Shown: in pieces, positions 8,340-23,854 of the stretch
How positions within the stretch are numbered: position 1 is the first letter of the stretch
Layout of the letters: the number at the start of each line of letters is the position of its first letter
Assembly (NCBI GenBank): GCA_003132585.1
Contig: PKYG01000097.1
Location: 1,790-65,789, forward strand
Source of the DNA: Actinomycetota bacterium
GTDB lineage: Bacteria; Actinomycetota; Thermoleophilia; UBA2241
DNA length: 64,000 bases
Reading direction: 5' to 3'
Made by a program: the position numbers and the translations under genes
The notes under the pieces: generated by a model
Seen by the model: the letters and a program-made list of their open reading frames with translations, nothing else
Told to the model about the DNA's origin: nothing
Databases searched by the model: none

Positions 8340-10544
8340 ATGGACCGCGTACCCGGTCTCCTGAAGCGGCACGAACAGCAGGTGCGCTACCTGCTGGTCG
8401 GCGGCTGGAACACGCTCTTCGGCTACGGCGTGTACGCGCTCCTCTACTGGCTGCTGCGCCGGCACATGTCGTACGTGCTGATCCTCGTGCCCGCCAACGT
8501 GATCGCGATCACGCAGAACTACTTCGGCTACAAATTCGTCGTCTTTCGCACGCACGGCAACTATCTGCGCGAGTACTTCAAGACCTACCTCGTGTACGGC
8601 GCCGCGTTCGTGGTCAATCTGGGCCTGCTGCCGCTGCTGCACGAGGTCGCCGGCTTGCCGGTGCTGGTCGCGCAGGCGGTGGCGATGGCGGTCACCGTGG
8701 TGCTCAGCTACTTCTTCTACAAGTACTTCGCCTTCCGGCCGGCGGACGGCGCAGGGGAGCGGTGGTCGCCGGCGGGGGAGCGCTGGTCGAGGCTCGACAT
8801 CGGTCTCGGCGCCGTCGCCGTCTTCGTCTTTCTCGCGGCGCTCGCCTTCACCTACAGCCGCCTCTACCGCGGCATCGACCTGCTCGACGAGAGCTTCTAC
8901 ATCGCCGTGCCGTATCGCTTCGCCCTCGGCGCGCGGCCGTTCGTCGACGAGGTCAACCTGCTGCAGCTCGCCGGGCTCGTCGTCTACCCGTTCGTCAAGG
9001 CGTTCGTGGCGATCAGCGGTGGGGCGACGGGGTTGATGCTCTATACGCGACACCTGTATCTGCTCTTCGCCCTCGGTGTCGCGACCTCGGTCTTCTGCCT
9101 GCTGCGTACGCTGATGCGCTGGCAGTACGCGGCGCTGGCGGCGACGCTCTACGTGAGCTACTTCGCCTTCGACCTGCCGCAACTCAACTACAACACGCTC
9201 GCCTCCGGGTTCCTGACGCTCGGCGTGGTCCTCGGGCTGTGGACGATCCTGCACGGACGCAGCCACTGGTACATGGTGGCGGCGGGCGTCTGTCACGGCG
9301 TCGCCGTGTTCGTGTTTCCGACGCTGATCGTGATCGTGCCGCTGTACGCGATCGCGGCGGCGCTCGTCAGCGCCGGGCGCCGGCGCGCGGCGTGGGCGTA
9401 CGTTGCCGGCGCCGGAGCCGCAGGCGCTGCCGGCGCCATCGTGCTCGTCTCCTTCGGCGTCGGCAATGTGCTGCGCAGCGTGCGCTTTCAGCTCGCCGAC
9501 GCCAAGCGCGTCGGCCAGGGCGGCGGGTTCGCGAAGGTCGGCAACGTGATCTCGGGCTGGGAGCGGCTGATGATGTCGCGCGCGCACCTGCTGGTCATTG
9601 CCGCGGTGCTCTATCTCATCTACCGGCGCTACCCGCGCGCGCGCCTGCTGCTGCTCGCCTACGTGCCGCCGTCGCTCTTCATGGGCGGCCTGCGCTGGCT
9701 GCTCGAGGCGGCGGGCTTTGCGATCGCCTTCATGTTCGTCAGCTTCTTCCTGCTGCTCTTCACCGATGCGCGCGATCGCAGCCTCGTCGTCAAGCTCGCC
9801 GCGTGGGGCCTCGTGCCGGCGCTCGCCGCCGGCATCATGACCGGGTACACGAGCGCCTCCAGCTTCGTCAACAGCGAGGTGGGGTTCCTCCCGGCGATGC
9901 TCTGTTGCGCGGCGCTGCTGGTGCTTGTCGCCGCGCCGCGCCCCGGCGAGCCGCAGGACCGGCTGGCGCGGGCGCTGCCGTGGCTCACGGCGGCGGCGCT
10001 CACGCTCACCGTCGCGGCGACGATCGTCTACCAGTTCGCGTACATCCCGCGGATGGTGCCGTACCGCACGCTCACAGTGCAGATGCGCGCGGGCCCCTAT
10101 GCGGGCATCTACACGACGGTCCCGCGCGCCGCCTTTCTCACCAAGTTCAGCGCCGACCTCGCCACGCTCGTGCGCCCCGACGAGCGCATCATCGTCTTCA
10201 ACGGCCTGCCGGCGGCGTACCTGATGTGGCCGCACGCCGCCGCCGCCAACACCGTGTGGATCACCACGTCCGGCGGGGCGCCGGGCGTGCTGCCGCCGGC
10301 CACCTGGGACTACTTCAAGCAGGCGGGCGTCGTGCCCGATGTCGTGATCCGCATCGCCAACCCTGCCGAGGCGACGCCGTGGGCGGTCGCGCACCAATTG
10401 AACGGGGGATTGCCGTACCCGCTCGTGCTTACCCGTACCGACGTGCTGCCGAACTACATCGTCTACCGGCGACCGGCGTGGTTCTCGATCGACACACTGC
10501 CGGCGCAGCCGACGCTGCCGCAGTCACCGGCGGCGACTCCCTAG
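8340..10544 (+). CDS. GtrA-like domain fused to a large GT-C-type polytopic membrane glycosyltransferase (ArnT/PMT-like).
   Basis: N-terminal ~130 aa LLVGGWNTLFGYGVYALLYW...YFGYKFVVF = GtrA family (4 TM), followed by ~600 aa with >12 predicted TM helices. ATG 8340. Confidence 0.7.
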   Translation: MDRVPGLLKRHEQQVRYLLVGGWNTLFGYGVYALLYWLLRRHMSYVLILVPANVIAITQNYFGYKFVVFRTHGNYLREYFKTYLVYGAAFVVNLGLLPLLHEVAGLPVLVAQAVAMAVTVVLSYFFYKYFAFRPADGAGERWSPAGERWSRLDIGLGAVAVFVFLAALAFTYSRLYRGIDLLDESFYIAVPYRFALGARPFVDEVNLLQLAGLVVYPFVKAFVAISGGATGLMLYTRHLYLLFALGVATSVFCLLRTLMRWQYAALAATLYVSYFAFDLPQLNYNTLASGFLTLGVVLGLWTILHGRSHWYMVAAGVCHGVAVFVFPTLIVIVPLYAIAAALVSAGRRRAAWAYVAGAGAAGAAGAIVLVSFGVGNVLRSVRFQLADAKRVGQGGGFAKVGNVISGWERLMMSRAHLLVIAAVLYLIYRRYPRARLLLLAYVPPSLFMGGLRWLLEAAGFAIAFMFVSFFLLLFTDARDRSLVVKLAAWGLVPALAAGIMTGYTSASSFVNSEVGFLPAMLCCAALLVLVAAPRPGEPQDRLARALPWLTAAALTLTVAATIVYQFAYIPRMVPYRTLTVQMRAGPYAGIYTTVPRAAFLTKFSADLATLVRPDERIIVFNGLPAAYLMWPHAAAANTVWITTSGGAPGVLPPATWDYFKQAGVVPDVVIRIANPAEATPWAVAHQLNGGLPYPLVLTRTDVLPNYIVYRRPAWFSIDTLPAQPTLPQSPAATP

Positions 10545-11281
10545 GAGCTCGACTCCGGGAACGCGTCGGCGACGGCTTTGCGGACGAAATCGAGCAGGTC
10601 GCCAGTCTTGTACAGGAAGCCCCTGATGCCGGCAGCCCCGGCCGCGGCCATGTCGCTCACCTTGTCGCCGATGAAGATGCAGTCGGAGGGCGCGGCGGCG
10701 AAGTCGGCCAGCGCCTGCAGAAGGAGTCCCGGTTGCGGCTTGCGCGCGGGGCAGTCGAGCCGGTAGGCGTCGAGCCCCGCCTCCGGATGGTGCGGGCAGT
10801 AGTACACAGCGGCGAGCGCCGCGCCGTCGGCGGCCAGGCGCTCGCCCACCCAGCCCATGAACTGCGCGAACTCCGCCTCCGTGTACAACCCGCGGCCGAT
10901 GCCCGCCTGGTTGGTGACGACGACGACGGTGAAGCCCCAGCGGTCGAGCCAGCGCACGGCCTCGACCGCGCCGGGCATCCAGACGAAGTCCTCGGGGCGG
11001 TGCACGTAGTCTCCGTCGACGTTGAGCACGCCGTCGCGGTCGAGGAAGGCGAGGCGGAGCTGGGCGGCGGCGACTCCGCCGCTGCCGGCGCCGATGGGAC
11101 GCGGATCGGTCGTGTCCCCCGAAACGATGGAGAGAGGAGGAGCCGGGGCACCGGAGCCCGCGGCCGCAGCGGTCACAGCCGCGGGCGCCGCGGCAGATGC
11201 GATCGCGGCAGCCGCAGCCTGAGCTGCCGCGGCCGCCGCGGCCGCGATCGCCTGAGCTGCCGCGCACGGCCGGATCAACAT
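10541..11281 (-). CDS. gmhB: D-glycero-D-manno-heptose 1,7-bisphosphate phosphatase (HAD, GmhB). N-terminal ~70 aa Ala-rich low-complexity stretch of doubtful reality; alt GTG start near 11176.
   Basis: FLDRDGVLN (DxDG), VVVVTNQAGIGRG, CPHHPE...CxCRKPxPG and FIGDKVSDMAAA motifs typical of GmhB. Confidence 0.7.
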   Translation of the reverse strand: MLIRPCAAAQAIAAAAAAAAQAAAAAIASAAAPAAVTAAAAGSGAPAPPLSIVSGDTTDPRPIGAGSGGVAAAQLRLAFLDRDGVLNVDGDYVHRPEDFVWMPGAVEAVRWLDRWGFTVVVVTNQAGIGRGLYTEAEFAQFMGWVGERLAADGAALAAVYYCPHHPEAGLDAYRLDCPARKPQPGLLLQALADFAAAPSDCIFIGDKVSDMAAAGAAGIRGFLYKTGDLLDFVRKAVADAFPESSS

Positions 11282-11844
11282 AGCGAGGCCTCGGCAAGCT
11301 CGCTGAGGATGTGCTCGATCACAATGTGTGCCTCCTGAGTGCGCGCGGTGTCGGTGCTGGGCACGGCGAGGAGCACGTCGCAGACGCCGGCGAGCCGGCC
11401 GCCGCCCTCGCCGGTGAGCGCGATCACCCTGAGGCCGCCGGCGCGCGCCGCGGCGGCGGCCTTGAGCACATTCGCGCTCTCGCCGCTGGTGGAGATCGCG
11501 AGCAGCACGTCGCCGGCGCGGCCGAGCGCCGCGACCTGCCGCGCGAAGACCTCGTCGAAGCCGTGGTCGTTGGCGACCGCCGTGACGATCGACGTGTTGG
11601 TCGTGAGTGCGATCGCCGGCAGGGCGCGGCGCTCGAGCCGGAAGCGGCCGACGAACTCGGCGGCGACGTGCTGGGCGTCGGCGGCGGAGCCGCCGTTGCC
11701 GCAGACCAGCAGCTTGCCGCCGGCCGAGAGCGAGTCGTGGATGAGCGCGTGCGCCCGGCAGATCTCGGCGCTCAGCGCCGAGACTGCCGCCATCACGCGC
11801 TCATGCTCCGCCAGGCGCTTGGCGACGATGCTCACACCGTCCAT
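11275..11844 (-). CDS. gmhA: Phosphoheptose isomerase (SIS domain).
   Basis: MDGVSIVAKRLAEHERVM... LLVCGNGGSAADAQHVAAEF... AISTSGESANVL SIS motifs. True start ATG at 11844. Longer ORF-track extension is an overlap artefact. Confidence 0.8.
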   Translation of the reverse strand: MDGVSIVAKRLAEHERVMAAVSALSAEICRAHALIHDSLSAGGKLLVCGNGGSAADAQHVAAEFVGRFRLERRALPAIALTTNTSIVTAVANDHGFDEVFARQVAALGRAGDVLLAISTSGESANVLKAAAAARAGGLRVIALTGEGGGRLAGVCDVLLAVPSTDTARTQEAHIVIEHILSELAEASLC

Positions 11845-12845
11845 GAGCGCACCCCCTCGTGCGTGAACTTGAAGTTGGCGATCTGCGCGCCGCCGCGCTG
11901 CAGCATGGCCTGCACGGCGAAGCGGCTGCCCGGCTTGCAGATGAAGAACATGAAGCCGCCGCCGCCGGCGCCGGGGATCTTGCCGCCGAGGGCGCCTGCC
12001 TTGCGCGCCTCGGCGTACAGCTCGTCGATCGGCGCCGTACTGATGCCGTCGGCCATCTGCTTCTTCGCCTCCCACGCCTCGTGCAGCAGCTCGCCGAGCG
12101 CCGGCACGCGGCCGAGCAGGAGCGCGTTCTTCATCTCGTAGGCGAGCGCCTTGAGGCGGTCCATGGCGGCGATCGCCGGGGCGTTGCCGGAGCGGTAGTT
12201 CTCCACCTGGCGGTCGATGATGTGCGCCGAGAAGTGGGTGCCGCCGACGTGCGCGAAGAGCAGGCTGTACTCGAGCTCGTAGAGCGTCTCCGGGCGCAGA
12301 CGCAGGGCGTTGACGATCGCGTGACCGTCGGCGAACTCGATGAAGTTGAAACCGCCGAAGGCGGTGGCGTACTGGTCCTGATGGCCACCGCCGATACCCG
12401 CCTCGATGCGCTCGATCTGATAGGCCTTCTCGGCGATCTGGTAGTCGTCGAGCGGCAGGCGCAGGTGCTGCGCCAGCGCCGCGATCAGCGCGACCGTGAC
12501 CGCCGAGGACGAGCCGAGGCCCGAACCGGGCGGCGCGTCGTTGTGGAGCAGCACCTCGAGACCGTCACTGAGACCGTGCTCCCGGCGAAAATGATCGAGC
12601 ACGGTCTTGGCCAGGTCGAGCTGCCCGTCGTAGACGAACTCCTCGTCGACCGAGCAGGCGACGCTGGAGTCGTAGTCGAGGCTCGAGATGCGCAGGTCCG
12701 GGCCGCCGGCGTCGAGCGTGGCGTAGGCGTAGCGGTCGATACTGGCGCTGAGCACGGCGCCGCCACGCTCGTCGCAGTACGGCGACACGTCGGTGCCGCC
12801 GCCGCCGAAGCTGATGCGCAGTGGCGCTCGCGCGCGGATGGTCAC
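11832..12845 (-). CDS. hddA: D-glycero-D-manno-heptose 7-phosphate kinase (GHMP kinase).
   Basis: GHMP motif PPGSGLGSSSAVTVALIAAL. GTG start at 12845 with GGAGGA SD 9 nt upstream. 13-bp overlap with gmhA. Confidence 0.8.
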   Translation of the reverse strand: MTIRARAPLRISFGGGGTDVSPYCDERGGAVLSASIDRYAYATLDAGGPDLRISSLDYDSSVACSVDEEFVYDGQLDLAKTVLDHFRREHGLSDGLEVLLHNDAPPGSGLGSSSAVTVALIAALAQHLRLPLDDYQIAEKAYQIERIEAGIGGGHQDQYATAFGGFNFIEFADGHAIVNALRLRPETLYELEYSLLFAHVGGTHFSAHIIDRQVENYRSGNAPAIAAMDRLKALAYEMKNALLLGRVPALGELLHEAWEAKKQMADGISTAPIDELYAEARKAGALGGKIPGAGGGGFMFFICKPGSRFAVQAMLQRGGAQIANFKFTHEGVRSWTV

Positions 12846-12895
12846 GCAGGGTCCTCCAATCGAGAAACGTGCATGGGCGCATTGTAGCAGGCGGG
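12707..12895. repeat. Copy A of a ~190-bp direct repeat: hddA 5' end (first ~46 codons) plus its RBS and upstream leader.
   Basis: ~94% identical to 14305..14493 by eye (CGTAGGCGTAGCG.TCGATACTGGCGCTGAGCACGGCGCCGCC...GTCACGCAGGGTCCTCCAATCGAGAAACGTGCATGGGCGCATT). Confidence 0.8.
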
Positions 12896-12967
12896 TGAGT
12901 GGGGGGCAGTGGTCGAGAAAGTGCCCACGAACTTCGAGTAGGTCTCAGCGCGCACTAGCGCGCTGCG

Positions 12968-14251
12968 TCAGCGAAGGGGCAGTGCGTAGCAGACCGTGTC
13001 GTCGATCTCCCGGCTGTAGTGCCTGAGGTACACACCGCTGCGCGGCATCAGCCGCTTGATGAGTAGAGGTATCGTCCACAGGTCGGTGGGAAAGTGATAG
13101 GCGGAGACGGCAAGGGTGGGTGCGGCGTCCGCGAGCAGGCGCGCCGCACCCAGGAGAGCCTCAGCCTCGGCGCCCTCGATGTCCATCTTGATCAACGACG
13201 GCGCGCGGCGGCCGTCGAAGTACTCGTCGAGGCCGACGACGGGCACGCTCTCACCTCCCAGCTCGTCGTCGCCGAGCAGCCGTGAGCCCGTACCAGCAGT
13301 GCTGAGGAGGCGCGCGCTGCTCATGTGGCGGGCGAGACCTGCCCGTATGGCGGTGATGCGCGCAGGGTCGGTTGCCGCGACATCGGCGAGTTTCGCAAAG
13401 CTCGCCCGGTCCGGCTCGAAGGCGACGTACGAGCGAAACCGCCCTGTGCAGCACACCAGGAACGATCTGAGGGTATCGCCGACGTAGGCACCTCCGTCGA
13501 CCACAACTTCGTCGACGCCGAGCTCATGCACGCTCGAATCGAAGTAGATGGTCGCCGCCGACGTGATCTCGTCCAGGCGCTCCTTGTCAAGGCTGACATA
13601 GAATGCGAGCTTGCCGGCGAACACGCGGCGTGACTCTTCGTCGGCGAGGAGGGCCTGCGCATCCTCGATGGCGGTGCGGTTGGCGGTGTCTGTGGCTGCC
13701 GCCCAGGCGCCCTCGTACTCCCGCGCCCGGAAGATCTCAGGCAGTCGCAGGTTCAAGTAGCCTGCCGGAACGACGGCCTCGCAGCCGAGCGCACGCAGAT
13801 CTTCACAGATCGCGGAGTCGAACATGGTGCTGGCTACGAGGACGGCGTCCCCTGAGTGGGCCGCGGCGACCTCGGTGGGGGAGAGTACCGGCAGGCCGTC
13901 GATGCGGCCGCCCTGCACCGCAGGGTCGCTGTCACCGAAAGCGACGACGCGCGCACCTTGCGCCGTCAGGCCCGCGGCTGCCTGACGGCCCATCCGGCCG
14001 GCTGGATAGACCACCGCAGGACGACGCCCGGCGAGAACCTCGTCAAGCACGCCGTAGCGTCTGTCCAGGGCTGCGCGCCACACTCGCGGGTCGCAGTCAA
14101 GGAGAGCGGCGAGGCGCGAGCCCGTGCTTGGGGCGTGCGCATCGCCGCGCGAGGACGAGCCTTCGTTCACGGCATCGTCGCCGGTGACAGACACTCGCCG
14201 ACGACGGAACACGGGCTCGCACGCCCGACCGACGTATGTCCGATGATGCAT
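12968..14251 (-). CDS. FkbM-family SAM-dependent methyltransferase with an N-terminal Rossmann-like domain (putative sugar O-methyltransferase).
   Basis: C-terminal VVDGGAYVGDTL...IKMDIEGAEAEAL...VSAYHFPTDLW matches FkbM (Methyltransf_21) family. ATG at 14251. Confidence 0.7.
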   Translation of the reverse strand: MHHRTYVGRACEPVFRRRRVSVTGDDAVNEGSSSRGDAHAPSTGSRLAALLDCDPRVWRAALDRRYGVLDEVLAGRRPAVVYPAGRMGRQAAAGLTAQGARVVAFGDSDPAVQGGRIDGLPVLSPTEVAAAHSGDAVLVASTMFDSAICEDLRALGCEAVVPAGYLNLRLPEIFRAREYEGAWAAATDTANRTAIEDAQALLADEESRRVFAGKLAFYVSLDKERLDEITSAATIYFDSSVHELGVDEVVVDGGAYVGDTLRSFLVCCTGRFRSYVAFEPDRASFAKLADVAATDPARITAIRAGLARHMSSARLLSTAGTGSRLLGDDELGGESVPVVGLDEYFDGRRAPSLIKMDIEGAEAEALLGAARLLADAAPTLAVSAYHFPTDLWTIPLLIKRLMPRSGVYLRHYSREIDDTVCYALPLR

Positions 14252-14266
14252 GATTCCATGGCCGTG

Positions 14267-14452
14267 CTATATCACGGGGCTTACGAGTCTCGGTGCGAGC
14301 AATACGCCACCGGCGTCGAGCGTCGCGTAGGCGTAGCGATCGATACTGGCGCTGAGCACGGCGCCGCCCCGCTCCTCGCAGTACGGCGACACGTCGGTGC
14401 CGCCGCCGCCGGAGCTGATGCGCAGTGGCGCTCGCGAGCGGATCGTCACGCA
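14267..14452 (-). pseudogene. Truncated duplicate of the hddA 5' end (hddA'). Potential 61-aa leader ORF directly upstream of the FkbM methyltransferase gene.
   Basis: [48 protein letters not shown] matches hddA residues 1-47, then diverges to a stop 15 nt before the fkbM start. Confidence 0.6.
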
Positions 14453-14493
14453 GGGTCCTCCAATCGAGAAACGTGCATGGGCGCATTCTAACA
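14305..14493. repeat. Copy B of the ~190-bp hddA 5'-end/leader direct repeat.
   Basis: See copy A. Includes the same GGAGGA SD and GTG start context. Confidence 0.8.
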
Positions 14494-14609
14494 GGCACAG
14501 GCTGACGAAGTTCTGATACCATTCGGCCGGATTCTGGATGAGGCTTCCAAGTTGGTTGCCCTGACATTCGTGAGAGGAACGTGCTCCTGAGCGTCCCAAG
14601 CGAGAAGCG

Positions 14610-15614
14610 GTGAAGGGTCACATCGTCGTGACTGGCTGCGCCGGGTTCATCGGGTCGCACCTGACCGACAGGCTGCTGGCCGACGGGCACACGGTGGTCG
14701 GCATCGACTCGTTCGAGGACTACTACCCGCGGGCGGTCAAAGAGGCGAACCTCGAAAGCGCGCGTGCCAACCCCGCCTTCACGCTGCATGAGGCGAACAT
14801 CCTCGACCTGGCCGCCGAGGCTGCGCCGGGCGGCCTCGAAGCAGGCGGCGCCAAGGGCTCCGCCCTCGCCGCCCTTCTGCGCGGCTGCGCCTGCGTTTAC
14901 CACCTCGCTGCCCAGGTTGGCGTGCGCGCCAGCTGGGGCATCTCGTTCGAGGTCTACACGCGCAACAACGTGCTGGCGACGCAGCAGCTGCTCGAGGAGT
15001 GCGTCGCTGCCGAGGTGCCCAAGGTGATCTACGCCTCATCTTCGTCGGTCTACGGCGACCAGGACGAGTTGCCGCTGCGCGAAGACATGCTGCCGCGGCC
15101 GCGCTCGCCCTACGGGGTGACCAAGCTGGCCGGCGAGCACCTCTGCGGCCTCTACCACGCCAATCACGGGCTCGACACGGTGTCGCTGCGCTTCTTCACC
15201 GTGTACGGCCCGCGGCAGCGCCCGGACATGGCCTTCCACAAGTTCATTAGGGCCACGCTCGAGGGCCGCGAGATCGTGATCTACGGCGACGGCACGCAGA
15301 CGCGCGACTTCACCTACGTGGACGACATCGTCGAGGGGCTGGTGCTGGCGCAGAACGCTCCGGCCGGCGCCGTGATGAACCTCGGCGGCGGCAACCGGGT
15401 GAGCCTTGACGAGGCGATCGCGACGCTCGGCGAGGTCATGGGGGCGGAGCCGAAGCTCGCTCGACAGCATGTGGAGGCAGGAGATGTGAGGGACACTCTG
15501 GCGGACGTGTGGAAGGCGGAGGAGTCGGTGGGCTACCGGCCTACGACAACGCTGGCAGGCGGACTGGCACAGGAATACACATGGCTGGCCGGGGAGAGGA
15601 GCGTGAGCTCATGA
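14610..15614 (+). CDS. NAD-dependent epimerase/dehydratase (nucleotide-sugar 4-epimerase or 4,6-dehydratase-like).
   Basis: [15 protein letters not shown] Rossmann. YASSSSVYG ... [11 protein letters not shown] (YxxxK) catalytic motif. GTG 14610. Confidence 0.8.
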
Positions 15615-16024
15615 CACCGTGGACCTCTGATTTCGAGATCATCGAGAAGGACGGCGCGGAACTGTGCTACGTCATCCGCGCCGAGCTCGCTCCCGACACC
15701 ACCACGTTCGTCACGCCATCCCACTACAAGCAGCAGGTGGGCTTCATCGCCTATCCCGCCGGCGGCGAAGTGCAGCGTCACCTGCACCTGCCCCTCGAGC
15801 GGCACCTCGTGGGCACGTCCGAGGTACTCTTCGTCCGCAAGGGTCGCTGCATTCTGGATGTGTACGACGACGCGAAGGAGCTTGTGGCCAGCCGTGAGGT
15901 CAAGGCCGGCGACCTTGTGCTGATGGTGGGCGGCGGCCATGGGTTCCGCATGCTCGAAGACACGCTCTTCCTCGAGGTGAAGCAGGGCCCATACCTCGAG
16001 TGCGAGGAGAAGGAGCGCTTCTGA
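15611..16024 (+). CDS. Cupin-fold protein (WxcM/FdtA-like sugar 3,4-ketoisomerase candidate).
   Basis: 137 aa, ATG 15611 in ATGA overlap with upstream stop. Small beta-barrel-type composition with His residues (QRHLHLPLERHL...GGGHGF). Confidence 0.55.
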   Translation: MTPWTSDFEIIEKDGAELCYVIRAELAPDTTTFVTPSHYKQQVGFIAYPAGGEVQRHLHLPLERHLVGTSEVLFVRKGRCILDVYDDAKELVASREVKAGDLVLMVGGGHGFRMLEDTLFLEVKQGPYLECEEKERF

Positions 16025-16959
16025 TGCACCCGATTCGTCATGCGAAAGCCCTCGTGCGTGAGCGCCTGACGAATGTCGTCCGTTCGGAGGTCCGGGCGGA
16101 GATGAGAACCACCGCCACTCTTGCCGCGCAGGTGGTCGAGGCACGCCAGGCTGGTGCAAGTCGTCTCGCTTCGACCTATGACCACACCAAGAGTCCCAGC
16201 GACGAGTTCTACGGCGATCTAGCTGAGAGGCTGCGGGGCGCCGGCGTGCATGTACAGACCAAACAGGTCGATGTGGCGCGCTTCTCGGACTGGGCCGAGG
16301 GACACCCCGGCCTCTGGGACTGCTATTACGGGGATCCTGCGACTCGCGTGGAGAAGCTGCTTGAGCACTTCCTCTCCGAGGAATCGACCCGTCTCACTGC
16401 GGGGATGGCCTACATCGATGTCGCGGCAGCCGGTGGTCACTGGGTCTCATGTCTGCGAGGTGCAGGACTGAATGCACTGGCCTTGGACCTGAGCTACCCG
16501 CAGGGAGTGCACGGGTGGCGCATCGGTGCAGATGCCCAGGAGATACCGCTTCCCAGTGGCTCGGTCGATGCCGTGTCCGCTCAGTGCGCGTTTGAATGCT
16601 TCCAGGGCGGTGCCGATGTTGGGTTCATGCGTGAGGCTGCGCGACTACTGCGCCTCGGAGGGAGGCTGGCGATCGTTCCCTTGTACGTGGAAGACGCTCA
16701 CTTCATCGCGACGAGTCCCTACACCATCGTCGAGCCGGGCTGTTTCGACGAGGGTGCAGCGGTGGTGTGGCGTGATGATGAGTACGATGAGCCGTTCGCT
16801 CGACACTACTCGCCGGAAGCTCTGGTCGATAGGCTGGGCGACGCACTCGGTCTGTTCTCGGAAACGAGAGTCGTGCACATGACCAATCTCGAGTCACTCC
16901 GAGAGCGTTGGCCCGGATCACGCCTGTACGCCTACTTCATGTTGGAGTGTCGCAAGTGA
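16024..16959 (+). CDS. Class I SAM-dependent methyltransferase.
   Basis: Methyltransf_11-like: IDVAAAGGHW (motif I-like) ... LLRLGGRLAIV (post-II). ATG 16024 overlaps upstream TGA (TGATG). Confidence 0.65.
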   Translation: MHPIRHAKALVRERLTNVVRSEVRAEMRTTATLAAQVVEARQAGASRLASTYDHTKSPSDEFYGDLAERLRGAGVHVQTKQVDVARFSDWAEGHPGLWDCYYGDPATRVEKLLEHFLSEESTRLTAGMAYIDVAAAGGHWVSCLRGAGLNALALDLSYPQGVHGWRIGADAQEIPLPSGSVDAVSAQCAFECFQGGADVGFMREAARLLRLGGRLAIVPLYVEDAHFIATSPYTIVEPGCFDEGAAVVWRDDEYDEPFARHYSPEALVDRLGDALGLFSETRVVHMTNLESLRERWPGSRLYAYFMLECRK

Positions 16960-16981
16960 CGCCCGACCTGCTGGTGAGCCG

Positions 16982-18097
16982 ATGATCCCGGTCAACGAGC
17001 CGGCGCTCGGCGAGCGCGAGATCGAGCTTGTCGCCGACTGCGTGCGCAGCGGCTGGGTATCGTCCGCAGGCCGCTACCTGGACGAGTTCGAGCGGCGCTG
17101 GGCGGAGTACTGCGACATGAAACACGGGGTCGCCGTTTCCAGCGGTACGGCGGCGCTGGATGTCGCTGTCAGCTGTCTCCGGCTGCAGCCGGGTGACGAG
17201 GTCATCCTGCCGTCGTTCACAATCATCTCGTGCGCCCAGGCGATCACTAAGCACGGTGGGCTGCCGGTGCTGGTGGACTGCGATCCGGACACATGGTGCC
17301 TGGACGTAGACCAAGTCGCCGCACGCATCACGCCGCGCACGCGCGCGGTCATGGCCGTGCACATGTATGGCCACCCCGCCGACATGGACCCCCTGCGCGA
17401 GCTGGCGGACCGTCATGGGTTGGTGCTCATCGAGGATGCGGCCGAGGCGCATGGGGCCGAGTACAAGAGGAAGCGCTGCGGAGGGCTAGGAGACATCTCG
17501 TGCTTCAGCTTCTACGCTAACAAGATCATCACGACGGGCGAGGGCGGCATGATCCTCACGGACCGCGACGACTGGGCGGCCCACGCGCGTGCGTATCGCA
17601 ACCTCTGCTTTGGCAGCGAGCGACGCTTCCACCACGAGGAGCTTGGCGAGAACTACCGTATGACCAACATGCAGGCGGCTCTCGGGGTGGCCCAGCTCGA
17701 CCGGGTGGACGAGATCGTGGCGCACAAGCGCGCCATGGCCGCGGCGTACACTGAGCGCCTGCAGTCGTGCAAGGCTCTGCGGCTCCCCACAGAGCGTGAG
17801 TGGGCGCGCAGCACGTTCTGGATGTACGGCGTGGTGCTCAAGGACGGCGGCCGCGGCGCTGCGGGTCTCGCGGTGGAGTTGGCGAAGCGGCTGCAGGCGC
17901 GCGGTGTGCAAACGCGGCCGTTCTTCCTGGGCATGCACGAGCAGCCGGCCTTCCACCGCATGGGCCTGTTCGCAGGCGAGGAGTACCCGGTCACGGAGAT
18001 GCTCGCCCGCCAAGGCCTGTACCTGCCGTCCGGGACGGCTCTGCAACTAAGCCAGGTGGACCAGGTCGCCGCCGCCGTCAACGAGGTGATGAGATGA
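16982..18097 (+). CDS. DegT/DnrJ/EryC1/StrS-family PLP-dependent sugar aminotransferase.
   Basis: VSSGTAALDVA ... IEDAAEAHGAEY ... FSFYANKIITTGEGGMI (Schiff-base Lys present). Confidence 0.85.
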   Translation: MIPVNEPALGEREIELVADCVRSGWVSSAGRYLDEFERRWAEYCDMKHGVAVSSGTAALDVAVSCLRLQPGDEVILPSFTIISCAQAITKHGGLPVLVDCDPDTWCLDVDQVAARITPRTRAVMAVHMYGHPADMDPLRELADRHGLVLIEDAAEAHGAEYKRKRCGGLGDISCFSFYANKIITTGEGGMILTDRDDWAAHARAYRNLCFGSERRFHHEELGENYRMTNMQAALGVAQLDRVDEIVAHKRAMAAAYTERLQSCKALRLPTEREWARSTFWMYGVVLKDGGRGAAGLAVELAKRLQARGVQTRPFFLGMHEQPAFHRMGLFAGEEYPVTEMLARQGLYLPSGTALQLSQVDQVAAAVNEVMR

Positions 18098-18161
18098 GCG
18101 CGTGGTTTGTCGGAGCCGTGTCTAGTACTGCGACGTTAACCGCAAGCGGGAGTGAGACCAG

Positions 18162-19100
18162 ATGACGCCGCGCATCCTAGTCACGGGCGCGGCGGGCTAC
18201 CTTGGGTCGGTCCTCGTCGGCCGGCTTCTCGACGGCGGCTTCGCGGTTCGCGCGGTCGATGCCCTGATCTATGGGCAAACGAGCCTGCTTCACTACTGCG
18301 GTCAAGCCGGTTTCGAGTTCGTCCGAGGCGACGTCAGAAACGAAGACCTCGTGCAACAGTCGCTTAGTGCTGTGGATGCCATCGTACCGCTGGCTGCACT
18401 CGTCGGTGCGCCCGTGTGCAGTCGCGATCCGTGGTCGGCCCGTGCGGTGAACTTCGAGGCCATCGCCATGCTGGCGCGTTTGCGGTCGCCATCGCAGCTG
18501 ATCGTGTTTCCGAACACCAACAGTATCTACGGGCACACTGCGTCTGGCTCGGTCTGTACCGAAGACTCGCCACTTGCTCCCGTGTCGGTGTACGCGCAGA
18601 CCAAATACGAGGCGGAGCAGACGGTGCTGGGGGCTGGGAACTCGCTCAGTCTGAGGATGGCGACGATGTTCGGTGCCTCGGCACGGATGCGCACCGATCT
18701 GCTCGTCAACGATTTCGTGTACTCCGCGTGCACCGCGCGTTCCATCGTGGTCTTCGACCACACCTTCCGCCGGAACTTCGTACACGTGCGCGATGCTGCG
18801 GACTGCATCACCCACTGCCTTGAGAACGCAGGGGACATGGCGGGTGGTGTCTATAACCTTGGTCTCGATGAGAGCAACCTTACAAAAGGCGAGCTTGCCA
18901 TGCGCGTTGCGAGCCACGTGCCCGGGTGCCATGTGGAGTTGGCGCAGATCGAGACTGACCCAGACAGACGCAGCTACACCATCTCGAGCGCGGCTCTCGC
19001 GGGAAAGGGCTTCGTTGCCAGGCGCTCCTTGGACGCGGGCATCGAGGAGCTCAAGACGGCATTCGAAATGTGGCCCCGCAGTCGCTTCGGCAACGTATGA
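18162..19100 (+). CDS. NAD(P)-dependent epimerase/dehydratase or reductase (extended SDR).
   Basis: ILVTGAAGYLGSVLV Rossmann. SVYAQTKYEAE (YxxxK). ATG 18162. Confidence 0.75.
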   Translation: MTPRILVTGAAGYLGSVLVGRLLDGGFAVRAVDALIYGQTSLLHYCGQAGFEFVRGDVRNEDLVQQSLSAVDAIVPLAALVGAPVCSRDPWSARAVNFEAIAMLARLRSPSQLIVFPNTNSIYGHTASGSVCTEDSPLAPVSVYAQTKYEAEQTVLGAGNSLSLRMATMFGASARMRTDLLVNDFVYSACTARSIVVFDHTFRRNFVHVRDAADCITHCLENAGDMAGGVYNLGLDESNLTKGELAMRVASHVPGCHVELAQIETDPDRRSYTISSAALAGKGFVARRSLDAGIEELKTAFEMWPRSRFGNV

Positions 19101-19936
19101 GCGATGGTACTTCCGGAGGAGGCGGCCGTGACTGGAGTGGGATCGTGAGCGGAATACCGTTCGGACCCGGTTATGCGTCTGCGTACGATGTGCTCTATGG
19201 CGACAAGGACTACGAGGCAGAGGTCGACATCCTCGAGGCTCTCTTTGCGCGGCACGCCTCATGCGCCGTCCATAGCGTGCTGGATCTGGGCTGTGGTACG
19301 GGGTCCCACGCGCTGCCGTTGGCGGGTCGCAGCTACGCTGTGACCGGAGTGGATGTTTCGTCGGACATGTTGGCTCGTGGCCGCAGCAAGCTGTCAGAGA
19401 CGGAGGTGGAGGTCGAGTTCCGCGAAGGCGACATCCGCAGTTACCGAGACGGGCGGGAATACGACGCGGTCATCATGATGTTCGCTGTGCTCGGCTACCA
19501 ACGCACCAACGCGGACGTTCTCGCCGCTCTCTCCACGGTCGCTGCTCATCTCCGCCCAGGTGGTGTGTTCGTTGCCGACTTCTGGTACGGGCCAGCGGTG
19601 CTGTCCTTGGGTCCCGGGAGTCGACAGAAGACGGCCATGCACGGGAACAGGCGGGTGTTCCGCTTCGCAAGCGGTGTTTGCGACGAGTCGCGTCACACCT
19701 GTGTGGTGGCGTACGACGTACTGACCACAGAGGGTGCGCACGTCTTGTCTGAGGCTCACGAGGACCACGAGATGCGGTTCTTCTTTCCCCTGGAGCTTGA
19801 CTTCGCGCTGGCAGATGCGGGCCTCTGTCGGCTAGCGCTCACCGCATACCCGGACGTGGAGAGTCCGCCCAGTGCCGCGGATTGGTGTGCCTGTCTCGTG
19901 GCACAGCTCGCCCCAGGCCGGTCAGCGTCGCGTTGA
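19097..19936 (+). CDS. SAM-dependent methyltransferase resembling TylM1/DesVI-type amino-sugar N,N-dimethyltransferases.
   Basis: YDVLYGDKDYEAEVDILEALF...VLDLGCGTGSHALPLAG...VTGVDVSSDMLA...EGDIRSY layout as in TylM1. ATG 19097 in ATGA overlap. Confidence 0.65.
   Translation: MSDGTSGGGGRDWSGIVSGIPFGPGYASAYDVLYGDKDYEAEVDILEALFARHASCAVHSVLDLGCGTGSHALPLAGRSYAVTGVDVSSDMLARGRSKLSETEVEVEFREGDIRSYRDGREYDAVIMMFAVLGYQRTNADVLAALSTVAAHLRPGGVFVADFWYGPAVLSLGPGSRQKTAMHGNRRVFRFASGVCDESRHTCVVAYDVLTTEGAHVLSEAHEDHEMRFFFPLELDFALADAGLCRLALTAYPDVESPPSAADWCACLVAQLAPGRSASR
19881..19907. repeat. Short diverged direct repeat (copy A) within the 3' end of the N-methyltransferase gene.
   Basis: ATTGGTGTGCCTGTCTCGTGGCACAGC vs CTTGGCGTGCGTGCCTCGTGGCACAGC at 21461..21487. 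Confidence 0.5.
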
Positions 19937-20140
19937 GAATGGACCCGGCCACCGTGCAGACCAGCCCAAGCGTCGCCTCGAGCCAAGGCGACACGACGCA
20001 ACGCCCCGACCAGGAGGATTGGACGCTCGTGATCCGGCCGAAGGGCCGGTTGGTCGACCTTCGCCTCCGCGAGCCCTGGGCGGCGAGGGAGCTCGTGTGG
20101 TTTAATGGGGGCGTCTCACTTGAGCGCGCCGGTCACCGCA

Positions 20141-20311
20141 ACCTACTGGCGTCTTTTCCTCATGCAGCGGGTGGTTGTGACCATTGCCAGCGTTTATTCG
20201 GCCGACAAAGTCAAGAACCGCATCCATCTGTCTCTCGGCCAGGAAGCCGTCGCTGCCAGGACGTGGTCGCGCAGTGAGCTCAAACGACCCCGTTCCGGAG
20301 TCCATCTGTAA
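20141..20311 (+). pseudogene. Decayed fragment of a PDH-E1-alpha-like (ThDP) gene N-terminus.
   Basis: TYWRLFLMQRVVVTIASVYSADKVKNRIHLSLGQEAVAA aligns to QVYRRLYLIRRVEETIVDIYPTDKVKSPVHLSLGQEAVAA of the intact gene at 21798. Followed by an ~8-codon deletion/frameshift and stop. Confidence 0.55.
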
Positions 20312-20447
20312 CAAGGCTGAAAGGCAACCTAACCAATCTGGAGCGTGCGACCCGCCAACGAGGTGATGGGCTGCGCGCCAACCAAGTAGGTTGGGCCGGG
20401 GCTCGCGTACAGGTTGACGGGGCTGGCGGGGAGGAGTGAAGGCAACG

Positions 20448-21416
20448 ATGGACCCAGCTGAAGAAAGAATCGAGATCATTCCACGCGATTGGCAGTCGGC
20501 TAGGACCTACCTCTGCGATCCGGGAGGATTCCTGAAGCAAGCTGCTGGGGTGGCGCGCAGGTCCATACTGGCAAGCAGAATGGGACGTCCGCTTCGCGCA
20601 GCAAAGCGGCAATACGGACTGATACGTAGTCTCAAGAGTACGCTGCTGTGGCCGTTTCATGATTTCTGGCTAAGCCCCCCGCCGATGACAGTCACCGTCA
20701 GGCGGTATACGCAGTTCTATAGGGACCTGAGGAGTTACTTTGGGTTGCCGGGTGCAGAGCCTTTTGACATCCGCTGGATGATCCCGCTCATCCACGACAA
20801 GTACTCTGATGCGGGGGATACTGGGCAGTATTTCTATCAAGACATCTGGGCAATGAAGCGCATCATGGAGACCAAAACAAGTTCACACGTAGACGTTGGC
20901 TCGAGAATGATTCTCGTCGGCATGATGAGTGCGATAACGCGTGTGACTTTTGTAGATGTCAGACCACTGCAGTGCAATCTGCCCAATCTGGAGAGCAGAA
21001 TTGGCGATATCACCAATATGCCCTACCCCGATAGCTCGATACCGTCGCTTTCGTGCTTGCATGTAGCTGAACACATCGGTCTAGGTAGGTATGGAGACAA
21101 GCTTGATCCCAAAGGAACCGAGAAGGCAGCTGCGGAGCTTGTTCGGGTTCTCGCGCCAAGTGGGAACCTGTTCTTCTCTGTACCCGTTGGGAACCCGGAG
21201 AGGGTGTATTTCAACTCGCACAGGATGTACTCAGTATCCACCATCATGGCGATGTTCTCAGACCTCGAGCTAGTCGAAGCATCGGGAATTGATGGCGAGA
21301 ACAACTTCATTGAGAATATAGACGTGCGACTGTTCGATGAAGTGAAACACCGTTGGGGTGGCGTGTGTCTGTTGTGGCTTAGGAAGCCTGCTGAAGTAGG
21401 TCGCTCCGATGGATAG
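20448..21416 (+). CDS. DUF268-like (methyltransferase-fold) protein of unknown function. Paralog of 44632..45465.
   Basis: YFYQDIWAMKRIM...HVDVGSR...VTFVDVRP...HVAEHIGLGRYGDKLDP...VLAPSGNLFFSVPVG, shared with the second copy. Confidence 0.55.
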   Translation: MDPAEERIEIIPRDWQSARTYLCDPGGFLKQAAGVARRSILASRMGRPLRAAKRQYGLIRSLKSTLLWPFHDFWLSPPPMTVTVRRYTQFYRDLRSYFGLPGAEPFDIRWMIPLIHDKYSDAGDTGQYFYQDIWAMKRIMETKTSSHVDVGSRMILVGMMSAITRVTFVDVRPLQCNLPNLESRIGDITNMPYPDSSIPSLSCLHVAEHIGLGRYGDKLDPKGTEKAAAELVRVLAPSGNLFFSVPVGNPERVYFNSHRMYSVSTIMAMFSDLELVEASGIDGENNFIENIDVRLFDEVKHRWGGVCLLWLRKPAEVGRSDG

Positions 21417-21460
21417 TCACAGCCTGGCCAGACGGCGCGATCAGCCGACAACCGTGCAGG

Positions 21461-21487
21461 CTTGGCGTGCGTGCCTCGTGGCACAGC
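21461..21487. repeat. Copy B of the N-methyltransferase 3'-end remnant repeat.
   Basis: Translates in one frame to AWRACLVAQPG, cf. DWCACLVAQLAPG at the N-methyltransferase C-terminus. Confidence 0.5.
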
Positions 21488-21797
21488 CGGGCGACGCCGA
21501 CACGGTTGCGCGTTGCTGGATGACCGTGGCTGCCCGACAGGTGGACCTGAACAAACGCGAGGGTCGAGTCGGTGTTTCGGGGCAGACTGATTGGCACAAG
21601 TGGACGCCGGTCATTTGTTCCGAGGCTGAGTGGTGCGACCATCGTCTCCGCGGACTCCTCCTGACAAGAGATCTGGGTTGGCTGTTCTTCTGTCGCGACT
21701 CTGTGGCTGCGCCCGAGCGACTGTCCTGTGCCGACATGTGGTATGCCTCCCGCTCTGTGCCAACGACGACTCTTTCAAGGTCAGGGTTGGTGGCTGA

Positions 21798-22805
21798 TTG
21801 ACCGAGGACATCGGATCGATCGGGCGCCATGAGGCGCATAGTCTTCTAGTGGGAGTTCGTAACTTGACCACTGACATACGGCAGGTCTACAGGCGTCTCT
21901 ACCTGATACGCCGGGTCGAAGAGACGATCGTCGACATCTACCCGACCGACAAGGTAAAGAGCCCCGTTCATCTGTCTCTTGGTCAGGAAGCCGTCGCCGC
22001 GGGGGTGTGCTCGGCATTGCGCCCCGAAGATGTCGTCTTTGGCTCCTATCGGGGTCACGCGAGCTACCTCGCCAAGGGCGGGAACCTCAATGCCATGATG
22101 GCCGAGCTCTTCGGCAAGGCGACTGGGTGCACCAAAGGCAGGGGCGGCTCGATGCATCTCGCCGACGCACGGGCCGGCGTGATGCCCACCTCGGCAATCG
22201 TCGGCTCGACGATAGCGAATGCGGCAGGATACGCCTTTGGGCTCCGTCGACTCGGTACGGATGCGGTGGTAGTCAGCTTTTTTGGTGACGGTGCCACCGA
22301 AGAAGGGGTGTTCTCGGAGGCGCTCAACTTCGCTGCTCTGAAGCGGCTCCCGGTCCTGTTCGTGTGCGAGAACAACAGCTATGCGATTCACACGCATGTG
22401 AGCCGCCGACAGTCGGCGCAGCGCCTGGTCGAGCGCGTCCGCACCTACGGCATTGCTGCTTCACGCGTCGCAGACGCAGATGTCCTGCGCATCGCCACGG
22501 AGGCGCAGGAGTGTGTGCAGGCATTGCGCGAAGGCCGCGGGCCGCGGTTTCTCGAGTGCGCGACGTATCGACTCAGGGAGCACGTGGGGCCGGGTGAGGA
22601 TTGGGACTTGGGCTACCGCTCGCGTGACGAAGCCCTACCCTGGATCCAGAGTGATCAGGTGACGCGACTTGGAGAAATGCTAGAGCCGCGAGAACGAGCG
22701 GCTCTTGAAGCGGCAGTGGAAGGGGAGATCACTGCCGCCGTGGCTTTTGCAGAGGAGAGCCCCTTCCCTGCCGCCAGCGACCTACAGAACGATGTGTTCG
22801 CATGA
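21798..22805 (+). CDS. ThDP-dependent 2-oxoacid dehydrogenase E1 component alpha-subunit-like (PdhA/AcoA-like).
   Basis: SYRGHAS...GGSMHLADARAG...FFGDGATEEGVFSEALNFAALKRLPVLFVCENNSYA (ThDP GDG-N motif). Start assigned to TTG 21798, uncertain. Confidence 0.75.
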   Translation: MTEDIGSIGRHEAHSLLVGVRNLTTDIRQVYRRLYLIRRVEETIVDIYPTDKVKSPVHLSLGQEAVAAGVCSALRPEDVVFGSYRGHASYLAKGGNLNAMMAELFGKATGCTKGRGGSMHLADARAGVMPTSAIVGSTIANAAGYAFGLRRLGTDAVVVSFFGDGATEEGVFSEALNFAALKRLPVLFVCENNSYAIHTHVSRRQSAQRLVERVRTYGIAASRVADADVLRIATEAQECVQALREGRGPRFLECATYRLREHVGPGEDWDLGYRSRDEALPWIQSDQVTRLGEMLEPRERAALEAAVEGEITAAVAFAEESPFPAASDLQNDVFA

Positions 22806-23854
22806 TTGAAGAACGCTCGCTGAGCCAGATAGACGCGATTCGCGAGGCCCTCTCGCAGGAGATGGAGCGGGATGATCGCGTTCTCGTGCTCGGCTTGGGC
22901 GTGGACGATCCGAAGGCGATACTCGGCAGCACGCGCGGTCTCGCGGAGCGCTTCGGCTCCGAGCGCGTGATGGACACGCCTCTCTCTGAGGATTGTATGA
23001 CCGGCGCATGCATAGGTATGGCGATGGCGGGCTTGCGTCCGGTTCATATCCACATTCGCGTCGATTTCCTCATGCTCGCCATGAACCAGATTGTGAATGT
23101 GGCGGCGAAGTCGATGTACATGTCCGGCGGCCAGCAACCCGTACCACTCGTTGTGCGGGCCATCATCGGGCGCAGCTGGGGTCAGGGCGCACAGCACTCT
23201 CAGGCGTTGCACAGCATGTTCATGCATGTGCCGGGCCTCAAGGTCGTGGCCCCCTCGACCCCGCTCGATGCGAAAGCCGCCCTGACCTACGCCATCCGCG
23301 ACGACAACCCCATCATCTTCATCGAGCACCGCATGCTGCATGGCTTCACGGGCGCGGTCCCAAGTGGCGAGGTCCTGAGAGGACCAGGTAGCTGCCGTGT
23401 TCTCAGGCGTGGGGGAGATCTGACCTTGGTGGGCATCTCCTATATGGTGCCCGAGTGCCTGCGCGCTGCAGAGTGGCTGTCCACCGTGGGCATCGAGTGC
23501 GAGGTCCTCGATCCCGTGTGGCTTAGCCCATTAGATGTCGAGGGCATCAACGCATCGGTCGCGAAGACAGGGCGTCTGCTCGTTGCCGACAACGCCTGGC
23601 TTGAGTGCGGCGCGAGCGCCGAGATTGTGGCGGGGGCCTGCGAGGCTTTGGGCTCGACGCGTCGCTTGGCCGTGGGGCGTGTGGGCTTCGCCGCGACCCC
23701 CTGTCCGACGACGCCTGCCCTCGAGGCGGTCTTCTACGCAAGCGCAGCCTCCATCGCGAGCGAGGCGTTCCGCCTGGTCAAGGGCGAGCTACCAGAGCGA
23801 GGCTGCGATCTCGACATGCCACGCGAGGTCCGGGAGTTCAGGGGGCCTTTCTGA
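22802..23854 (+). CDS. 2-oxoacid dehydrogenase E1 component beta-subunit-like (transketolase-like Pyr and C-terminal domains).
   Basis: MDTPLSEDCMTGACIGMAMAGLRP...GLKVVAPSTPLDAKA. ATG 22802 in ATGA overlap with alpha-subunit stop. Confidence 0.8.
   Translation: MIEERSLSQIDAIREALSQEMERDDRVLVLGLGVDDPKAILGSTRGLAERFGSERVMDTPLSEDCMTGACIGMAMAGLRPVHIHIRVDFLMLAMNQIVNVAAKSMYMSGGQQPVPLVVRAIIGRSWGQGAQHSQALHSMFMHVPGLKVVAPSTPLDAKAALTYAIRDDNPIIFIEHRMLHGFTGAVPSGEVLRGPGSCRVLRRGGDLTLVGISYMVPECLRAAEWLSTVGIECEVLDPVWLSPLDVEGINASVAKTGRLLVADNAWLECGASAEIVAGACEALGSTRRLAVGRVGFAATPCPTTPALEAVFYASAASIASEAFRLVKGELPERGCDLDMPREVREFRGPF

Follow-up and report, generated by a model that had tools for sequence, protein, structure and literature searches.

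An fkbM gene fragment between two copies of the hddA 5' region: a probable recombination scar in the surface-glycan locus of an uncultured bacterium

Analysis of a 64,000-nucleotide (nt) stretch of DNA from an uncultured member of the Actinomycetota (contig PKYG01000097.1 of assembly GCA_003132585.1; the whole stretch is called the window below) revealed a gene encoding an FkbM-family methyltransferase that is bracketed by two copies, A and B, of the 5' region of hddA, a gene encoding a GHMP kinase. This arrangement is probably a recombination scar: an orphan fkbM fragment would have been gained at the boundary between the conserved and the variable part of a surface-glycan locus and wired to the resident promoter.

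Structure of the repeat and source of the fkbM fragment

A repeat search and blastn identified one long direct repeat, formed by positions 12702 to 12892 (copy A) and 14306 to 14496 (copy B). The copies are 191 nt each, align without gaps and are identical at 181 of 191 positions (94.8%; 10 mismatches), with a spacing of 1604 nt. This confirmed the initial annotation, which had described a repeat of the hddA 5' end and its leader about 1.6 kb away. Read on the minus strand, each copy consists of 47 nt of leader followed by the first 144 nt (48 codons) of hddA. The leader contains a TG(C/T)TA(C/G)AAT motif, a GGAGGA Shine-Dalgarno sequence 6 nt before the start, and a GTG start codon. GGAGGA and GTG had already been reported for both copies, and both were found there, together with the conserved promoter-like element. 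A degenerate 41-nt pattern of the leader matched only two sites in the window, copies A and B, and none in 100 shuffles. The features of the region are as follows, in the order in which they are read on the minus strand (ORF, open reading frame; aa, amino acids; hddA', the truncated hddA headed by copy B).

14497 to 14609, minus: ancestral intergenic region upstream of the hddA leader, contiguous with copy B and common to the strains with a single hddA
14306 to 14496, minus: repeat copy B; motif TGTTAGAAT at 14485 to 14493, GGAGGA at 14456 to 14461, GTG at 14447 to 14449, hddA codons 1 to 48
14267 to 14449, minus: hddA' remnant ORF, GTG 14449 to TAG 14267, 60 aa
14209 to 14305, minus: filler, 97 nt at the left junction, between hddA' codon 48 and the fkbM block
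14167 to 14205, minus: radical-SAM/SPASM stub, last 12 codons (VVGECLSPATMP and the stop), running 28 nt past the fkbM start, an overlap also present in the native operon
12968 to 14194, minus: FkbM-family methyltransferase gene, 408 aa from the probable start GTG 14194 (longest ORF 427 aa from ATG 14251, 12968 to 14251)
12946 to 12965, minus: GC-rich hairpin (8-bp stem, 4-nt loop) right behind the fkbM stop, taken over from the gap that separates the convergent genes at the native site
12909 to 12941, plus: stub of a convergent glycosyltransferase gene, last 10 codons and stop, with homology to L176, L177 and L179 (a GT2 gene in L179)
12893 to 12908, minus: right junction, 16 nt (TGCCCCCCACTCACCC) joining the fkbM block to copy A
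12702 to 12892, minus: repeat copy A; motif TGCTACAAT at 12881 to 12889, GGAGGA at 12852 to 12857, GTG at 12843 to 12845, codons 1 to 48 of intact hddA
11832 to 12845, minus: intact hddA-like GHMP kinase gene, 337 aa (PF00288, E = 7.5e-22; PF08544, E = 4e-12)

The ORF headed by copy B comprises 48 HddA residues and 12 residues encoded by the filler. JGI gene callers annotate a 60-aa ORF at this position. The ORF has no Pfam match, and a protein search with it returned the same stub (P0256) and many short HddA N-terminal fragments, and nothing else. It is a pseudogene stub and not a gene. The initial annotation had given the peptide 61 aa and placed its end 15 nt before fkbM; the distance was correct for ATG 14251, the peptide has 60 aa, and the likely fkbM start lies further downstream.

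The FkbM domain was recognized in residues 249 to 393 (PF05050, E = 1.5e-12, 48.4 bits with a cutoff of 22.7; TIGR01444, 58.6 bits with a cutoff of 37.7). A set of 120 FkbM homologues of about 390 to 420 aa covers 87 to 96% of the protein, that is, an N-terminal region of about 215 aa and the FkbM domain. The closest homologues, P0137, P0138 and P0140, are 404 to 421 aa long and share 86%, 83% and 78% identity with it. The fkbM ORF is intact, and the ratio of nonsynonymous to synonymous substitution rates (dN/dS) in comparison with the closest homologues is 0.22 to 0.27, in both halves of the gene; this ratio reflects past constraint and not present function. Residues 80 to 141 weakly resemble the N-terminal domain of NeuD/PglB/VioB sugar acetyltransferases (TIGR03570, E = 5e-4, far below the cutoff), and some FkbM homologues carry a precomputed PF22674 match.

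Translation of fkbM probably starts at GTG 14194, 72 nt past the hddA' stop, a codon that aligns with the ATG start in the related locus L176. The alternative, ATG 14251, sits in the filler and would add 19 residues to FkbM. GTG 14194 was preferred because it is supported by the homologues and by the nucleotide homology, while ATG 14251 falls in the filler.

Analysis of the genomic localization of fkbM in L176, L177 and L179 revealed that the gene stands there at the end of an operon encoding a thiamine pyrophosphate (TPP)-dependent enzyme, a GFO/IDH/MocA oxidoreductase, a radical-SAM/SPASM protein and FkbM. In this native operon the radical-SAM gene runs 28 nt into fkbM, which is itself followed by a convergent GT2 glycosyltransferase gene. 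Nucleotide identity over window positions 14202 to 12909 is 87% to L176, 86% to L177 and 80% to L179, with the homology beginning at about 14202 to 14208. The last 11 residues of the radical-SAM stub (VGECLSPATMP, followed by the stop) are identical to the C terminus of the upstream gene in L176. Because stubs of both former neighbours and the native hairpin are found within the homologous stretch, fkbM must have arrived as a 1.3-kb fragment cut from a TPP-enzyme/oxidoreductase/radical-SAM/FkbM operon. The initial annotation had spoken of a gene insertion; the two stubs and the 97 nt of filler show that the insert is not a clean gene. A search of the window revealed no radical-SAM, close GFO/IDH/MocA oxidoreductase or TPP-enzyme partner of fkbM. 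The four-gene operon recurs in several metagenomes (L177, 750 to 4117; L179, 145 to 5371) and looks like an uncharacterised sugar-tailoring module.

The filler contains two ATG codons. ATG 14251 shares its frame with fkbM, and ATG 14259 begins a mini-ORF of 30 codons that extends into the radical-SAM stub. No second copy of the filler was found in the window or in any fetched locus, and comparisons of it with the next part of hddA and with the radical-SAM 3' end gave no significant similarity. An origin as a decayed continuation of hddA was considered and rejected: an apparent match of 12 of 19 positions to the next hddA codons is not above chance. At the right junction a possible CCTG microhomology with the native fkbM flank is not significant.

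To establish the ancestral arrangement, related loci were collected. A genome scan with HddA showed that the species of the window is absent from GTDB representatives; the best matches were 62 to 69% identical and came from Coriobacteriia and "Eubacteriales" metagenome-assembled genomes. In the protein database a 90% cluster of 16 HddA variants was found, whose contigs yielded five sister strains, and a metagenome scan for HddA contributed two close contigs, L092 and L093. In three loci without fkbM (L092, L172 and L181) there is only one hddA 5' region, and it continues directly into the intergenic sequence that the window has next to copy B; a single hddA 5' region is what the initial annotation had predicted for relatives lacking fkbM. 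From the intergenic region through codon 48, identity to the window is 94.2% for L092 (14600 to 14306), 93.1% for L172 (14567 to 14306) and 90.6% for L181 (14570 to 14305). On the other side, the conserved hddA-gmhA-gmhB block (85 to 95.6% identity) begins at window position 12892 to 12898 in every strain compared (L086, L092, L172, L181 and L173), which is the upstream edge of copy A. Because the single copy of the fkbM-less strains sits at the place of B and the conserved block starts at the edge of A, the sequences indicate that copy B is in the ancestral position and that copy A forms the new junction.

Two further strains have other neighbours at this edge. L086 (GCA_936421705.1) matches the intergenic region up to about position 14503, and the first 208 nt of the divergent epimerase gene together with the intergenic region are 89% identical to L086 positions 2285 to 2597. 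Between its intergenic sequence and the hddA leader L086 carries a different insertion of 7.35 kb, which holds a gene for a 2305-aa protein with MBG_2/YDG repeats. This insertion (L086, 2001 to 9951; CAKZEB010000001.1) lies within about 10 nt of the same spot, between the intergenic TTCGTCA and the leader. Beside it only a 163-aa epimerase gene is called, of which just the first 208 nt match the window epimerase. In L173 to L175 hddA has yet another neighbour, a methyltransferase gene. Thus four upstream contexts (the ancestral intergenic region, the fkbM block, the surface-protein gene of L086 and the methyltransferase gene of L173) are joined within about 10 nt of each other. The DNA just upstream of the hddA TGnTAnAAT motif could accordingly be a preferred landing slot for glycan genes, with or without repeat-mediated on/off switching of fkbM, an idea that we consider rather improbable. 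In addition, the 191-nt repeats could let fkbM pop out by homologous recombination, which would give heritable on/off variation of a glycan methylation.

The upstream edge of copy B (14494 to 14505, minus strand) is a 6-nt tandem, GCCTGT GCCTGT, followed by TAGAAT. The tandem is common to L092 and L172 (with GCCTGC as the second unit in L172) and reads GCATGT GCCTGT in L181. Copy A, L086 and L173 have a single unit with different DNA upstream.

An assembly artefact is unlikely to account for the arrangement of A and B; the evidence on this point is strong but not final. The same structure was found at 100% identity in at least five independent metagenome assemblies. A 5.3-kb region is 100% identical in JGI 3300050141, 3300050139 and 3300050015 and in ENA ERZ19974443, and a 691-kb NCBI/ENA contig encodes the same proteins as the window region. 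A Logan contig of 1516 nt, found in four sequencing runs, starts in copy B, ends in copy A and covers both inner junctions. It ends 31 nt past the last A-specific base, which we read as the endpoint expected when a k = 31 graph breaks within the repeat. A chimeric contig that fuses two co-occurring strains through shared hddA k-mers would have had an opportunity, since divergent strains with the same hddA 5' region do share at least one sample (L088 and L181 in JGI 3300050015). However, both inner junctions (copy B to filler, and fkbM flank to copy A) are unique sequence spanned by the Logan contig, the outer junctions are identical from the JGI, ENA and NCBI pipelines on different samples, and the 10 site differences let assemblers separate the copies. 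Such a chimera is therefore extremely improbable.

Putative expression signals of fkbM and hddA

The repeat starts 3 nt upstream of the TGnTAnAAT motif. This motif is built like an extended -10 promoter (TGn followed by a -10 hexamer) and is positionally conserved in relatives. The pattern TG[CT][GT]A[GC]AAT precedes hddA in 17 of 34 related loci, at a distance of 43 to 112 nt and in most cases at -43 to -49; the 784 kb searched (both strands counted) contain only 20 matches, these 17 among them. Upstream of hddA in relatives with only 62 to 69% HddA identity the motif reads GTGCGAGAATAGGCG. An extended -10 promoter can function without a -35 element. The GTGCGAGAATAGGCG box and TGCTAGAAT of the window likely represent one and the same promoter or operator element. 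A nearly invariant GTGCGAGAATAGGCG box lies 43 to 80 nt upstream of hddA in L001, L003, L008, L094, L096, L097, L101, L102, L104 and L105, where the rest of the leader differs. Two other matches to TG[CT][GT]A[GC]AAT occur in the window, at 50342 (minus) and 55892 (plus). An Rfam scan of the leader gave only two matches at chance level (E = 0.31 and 0.69), and the leader folds no better than shuffled sequences.

Each copy probably carries a putative promoter, a strong Shine-Dalgarno sequence and a start codon. Since nothing but the divergent epimerase gene precedes copy B, transcription of fkbM would most probably start at B. In our reading fkbM has lost the upstream gene to which it was formerly coupled in translation and has no good Shine-Dalgarno sequence of its own. 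The hddA' stop lies 7 nt before ATG 14259, whose 30-codon ORF, in the frame of the radical-SAM gene, overlaps GTG 14194 by 28 nt in a native-like manner. We infer that reinitiation after the hddA' stub would be the likeliest route to fkbM translation. Copy A would keep hddA-gmhA-gmhB expressed regardless of upstream events, so that the insertion would not be polar on heptose synthesis, and the inherited hairpin after fkbM could reduce read-through into hddA. The initial annotation had proposed that fkbM is driven by the duplicated promoter while hddA keeps its own. A sharing of promoter and Shine-Dalgarno sequence of this kind is plausible, with transcription suggested by these signals, and the roles are reversed: fkbM would use the ancestral copy B and hddA the new copy A.

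Divergence of the two copies and the route of gain

Comparison of copies A and B revealed differences at positions -42, -39, +6, +13, +38, +75, +81, +111, +126 and +141 relative to the start. For seven of the ten, both states are present in the intact hddA genes of other strains. The other three occur in B alone: F13S, which falls in the invariant RISFGGGGTD motif, D25E and a synonymous change. Copy A has no state of its own. In a simulation 0.7 to 1.3 such coincidences were expected under new mutation, as compared to the seven observed (P about 5e-5), and a conservative bound that counts every polymorphic non-constrained site as a coincidence gave P = 0.03. The coding differences in the 48 codons comprise five synonymous and three non-synonymous changes (dS 0.139; P = 0.04 against neutral decay), and this dS lies within the between-strain range of 0.07 to 0.25 for the whole hddA gene. 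Over the 48 codons copy A is 1 nt away from L092, and copy B is 9 to 13 nt away from every strain. These results indicate that A and B behave, at the sequence level, as two population alleles and not as a decayed in situ duplicate. Given the shared polymorphisms, the synonymous excess and the closeness of A to L092, most of the divergence appears to have arisen while both were part of working hddA genes in different lineages, and B would later have added a few decay mutations. The 191-nt segment is a mosaic, and under any model recombination between strains or conversion between the copies is involved, in more than one event. The initial annotation had proposed an insertion resolved by duplication; the hddA 5' region does stand on both sides of fkbM, and the seven shared polymorphisms speak against a simple duplicate that then diverged.

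The gain of fkbM may be pictured as follows. The 1.3-kb fragment would have been torn from its source operon and placed between the resident hddA promoter region and the intact hddA. The most likely route is an exchange between strains that combined one homologous crossover, within hddA or downstream of it, with an illegitimate join in the resident hddA at codon 48. Copy B has stayed with the ancestral intergenic region, where it heads the dead hddA' stub and then fkbM, and copy A heads the intact hddA-gmhA-gmhB operon with a putative promoter, a Shine-Dalgarno sequence and a start of its own. In the final state fkbM would be transcribed from the resident extended -10-type promoter in B, with ribosomes delivered by the Shine-Dalgarno sequence and the GTG of the stub. 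Recombination partners are available, since sample 3300050015 contains the divergent sister strain L181 as well as the window strain.

This route resembles homology-facilitated illegitimate recombination (HFIR), an established way of gaining foreign DNA in which a homologous anchor at one end is combined with an illegitimate join at the other (PMC3240628; de Vries & Wackernagel 2002 and Prudhomme et al. 2002, cited in PMC5361080). HFIR has also been put forward for the displacement arrays of type VI secretion loci (PMC5361080). As in HFIR, the fkbM block is continuous with the homologous anchor hddA-gmhA-gmhB (from copy A onward 95% identical to other strains). The other side would be joined without homology inside a resident gene, with the resident sequence kept, which would yield the duplication, and with filler at the joint. 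The resident hddA is broken after codon 48, where the 97 nt of filler follow and cover the original joint. Unlike the HFIR model, the case is known from sequence alone, no donor configuration was found, and the identical leader parts of A and B are not predicted by a plain donor and recipient. The inter-strain route is favoured among the forms of the scar, because it explains the allele-like differences and the coincidence of the A edge with the universal block boundary; we give it about an even chance.

Several points weigh against a scar wired to the resident promoter. The A and B leaders are identical from -38 to +5 and share -31 C and -3 T, which are found in no other strain. By our own estimate, 10 differences spread over 191 nt would leave an identical run of 43 nt by chance, but this does not hold for the unique states that the leaders share; judged by the sequences, these states speak for sisterhood or gene conversion. 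The allele statistics rest on 10 differences and five comparison strains. No donor arrangement, with fkbM directly upstream of the hddA leader, was found, and the closest fkbM homologues lie in a different operon and not beside hddA. A scan for sigma-70 promoters (-35 and -10 hexamers, 16 to 18 nt spacing) detected none in 12600 to 14700, and no -35 element. Between fkbM and copy A the scan revealed no canonical terminator; the hairpin is at most a possible one, since it has no U-tract and its fold is not significant (z-score -1.85). The fkbM gene may be silent, or without a substrate, in this organism.

With regard to the donor, no fkbM homologue was found within 10 kb of hddA in any of 80 genome loci, and no fkbM upstream of hddA in the sister-strain contexts that were read; the 80 metagenome loci were not searched for fkbM. 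The sampling of related loci is thin.

The leader identity and its two strain-unique states would fit a single event in situ, in which fkbM was inserted with a 191-nt target duplication, by staggered-break fill-in or template switching, followed by point mutation and by later recombination that patched A. The lack of a donor with fkbM beside hddA would fit as well, and illegitimate or template-switch events typically leave such filler and gene stubs at their junctions. Against this stand the seven shared polymorphisms where about one was expected, the 5:3 synonymous excess, and copy A, which has no unique change and lies so close to L092. The duplication would also have its edge within about 10 nt of the independent L086 and L173 junctions, a coincidence that it leaves unexplained. 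Since the copies are different population alleles, an origin in situ is less likely than recombination between strains, and we consider it unlikely, at perhaps a fifth of the weight of all explanations.

A Campbell-type integration would involve a 1.6-kb circle with fkbM and an hddA 5' arm that entered by a single crossover; RecA-dependent pop-out would then switch glycan methylation on and off. Direct repeats of the homology segment around the insert are the exact product of a single crossover, a feature shared with other models, and identical runs of 24 to 43 nt exist between the repeats. However, fkbM is the only gene of the insert, which carries no integrase, replication function or mobility gene and bears stubs of two unrelated chromosomal genes. 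An excised state with a chimeric B/A copy was found in no contig, and the fkbM-less L181 from the same sample is a different strain, 90 to 95% identical. This route is highly improbable.

An insertion of the transposon, insertion sequence (IS) or integron type was considered and rejected. Such elements also leave direct repeats of the target around the insert, but their target-site duplications are 2 to 14 nt long, while the repeat here has 191 nt with copies only 95% identical, and the insert has no transposase or other mobility gene and no inverted repeats at its ends.

Returning to the gain of fkbM by recombination, we regard the case as a scar of a known kind and not as a new kind of system. 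Truncated remnants and partial duplications at block junctions are documented for O-antigen loci, where they were used to infer ancestry, as in the wzy remnants and the partial wzy duplication of Salmonella groups B1, D1 and D3 (PMC3715488). As in the Salmonella wzy loci, a strain-variable surface-glycan cluster lies here beside conserved sugar-pathway genes, and truncated stubs and partial duplications left at the block junctions by recombination between lineages reveal ancestry. In contrast to those loci, it is a conserved pathway gene whose 5' end forms the stub here, duplicated with promoter and leader, there is no IS or H-repeat at the junction, and the host is an uncultured high-GC bacterium known from metagenomes alone. 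Displacement arrays of orphan immunity genes or of Rhs/CDI (contact-dependent inhibition) 3' ends are formed by repeated insertion behind a conserved anchor (PMC5361080). The present locus shares with them the anchor, an incoming module that displaces and does not replace the resident sequence, and orphan fragments in tandem. It differs in that those arrays are extended at the 3' end of the conserved gene, with immunity genes that remain functional, whereas here a 5' stub is left and the functional gene lies downstream. Particular to this case are the duplicated promoter, leader and 5' end of a pathway gene, a source operon that can be named, and three gene stubs together with filler at the joints.

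The two sides of the locus and their meaning

The genes next to the features described above are as follows.

11275 to 11844/11850, minus: gmhA (TIGR00441, 210.8 bits with a cutoff of 209.45)
10541 to 11281, minus: gmhB-like gene (GmhB models, 148 to 165 bits, just under the cutoffs)
14610 to 15614, plus: NAD-dependent (short-chain dehydrogenase/reductase-type, SDR) epimerase/dehydratase gene (PF01370, E = 3.5e-57), the divergent neighbour and first gene of the strain-variable glycan block

On the conserved side, hddA, gmhA and gmhB were assigned to one operon (10541 to 12845, minus) because their reading frames overlap. The HddA model NF049969 matched the kinase over its full length (1 to 337 of 338) and was the best family by far; the protein is called HddA-like because its score of 264.9 bits stays under the equivalog cutoff of 600. 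The dN/dS of hddA in comparison with other strains is 0.12 to 0.21. A tblastn search revealed no hddC nucleotidyltransferase gene in the window, nor was one found in the close sister strains, and the heptose activation step is thus unaccounted for in the window. In more distant relatives (L001 to L008; for example L003, 11583 to 12309) an hddC-like nucleotidyltransferase gene lies between gmhA and gmhB. At its N terminus the gmhB-like protein carries about 75 additional aa of Ala-rich, low-complexity sequence (11060 to 11281, minus), encoded by GC-rich internal repeats (families D5 and D7; 11158 to 11263), and phosphatase models match residues 76 to 228 only.

The protein database contains many short HddA N-terminal fragments of 44 to 105 aa (P0257, P0287, P0297, P0272, P0273, P0286 and P0312). 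Several lie on contigs of 13 to 147 kb, and the tails of some depart from the family consensus after residue 45 to 60. These fragments may be remnants of the hddA 5' end in other lineages, or genes truncated where a contig ends.

On the variable side, the block from 14610 to 24000 (plus) encodes the epimerase, a WbuC-like cupin, several methyltransferases, a DegT aminotransferase, a DUF268 protein and an E1 dehydrogenase/transketolase-like pair. The gene set of this block differs in each sister strain: L172 and L173 have ABC-transporter Wzm/Wzt genes and other FkbM genes, and L181 has acetyltransferase genes.

For annotation, the TGnTAnAAT element would mark the hddA promoter in this clade, the 60-aa ORF should not be called as a gene, and the fkbM start is probably GTG 14194. 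The outcome would not surprise a specialist; its use lies in these corrections and in a worked example. It illustrates, base by base, how surface-glycan loci of uncultured bacteria may gain a single tailoring gene as a fragment of another operon. The incoming gene would be pasted at the boundary between conserved and variable DNA and wired to an existing promoter, while the essential downstream operon would keep its own copy of that promoter.

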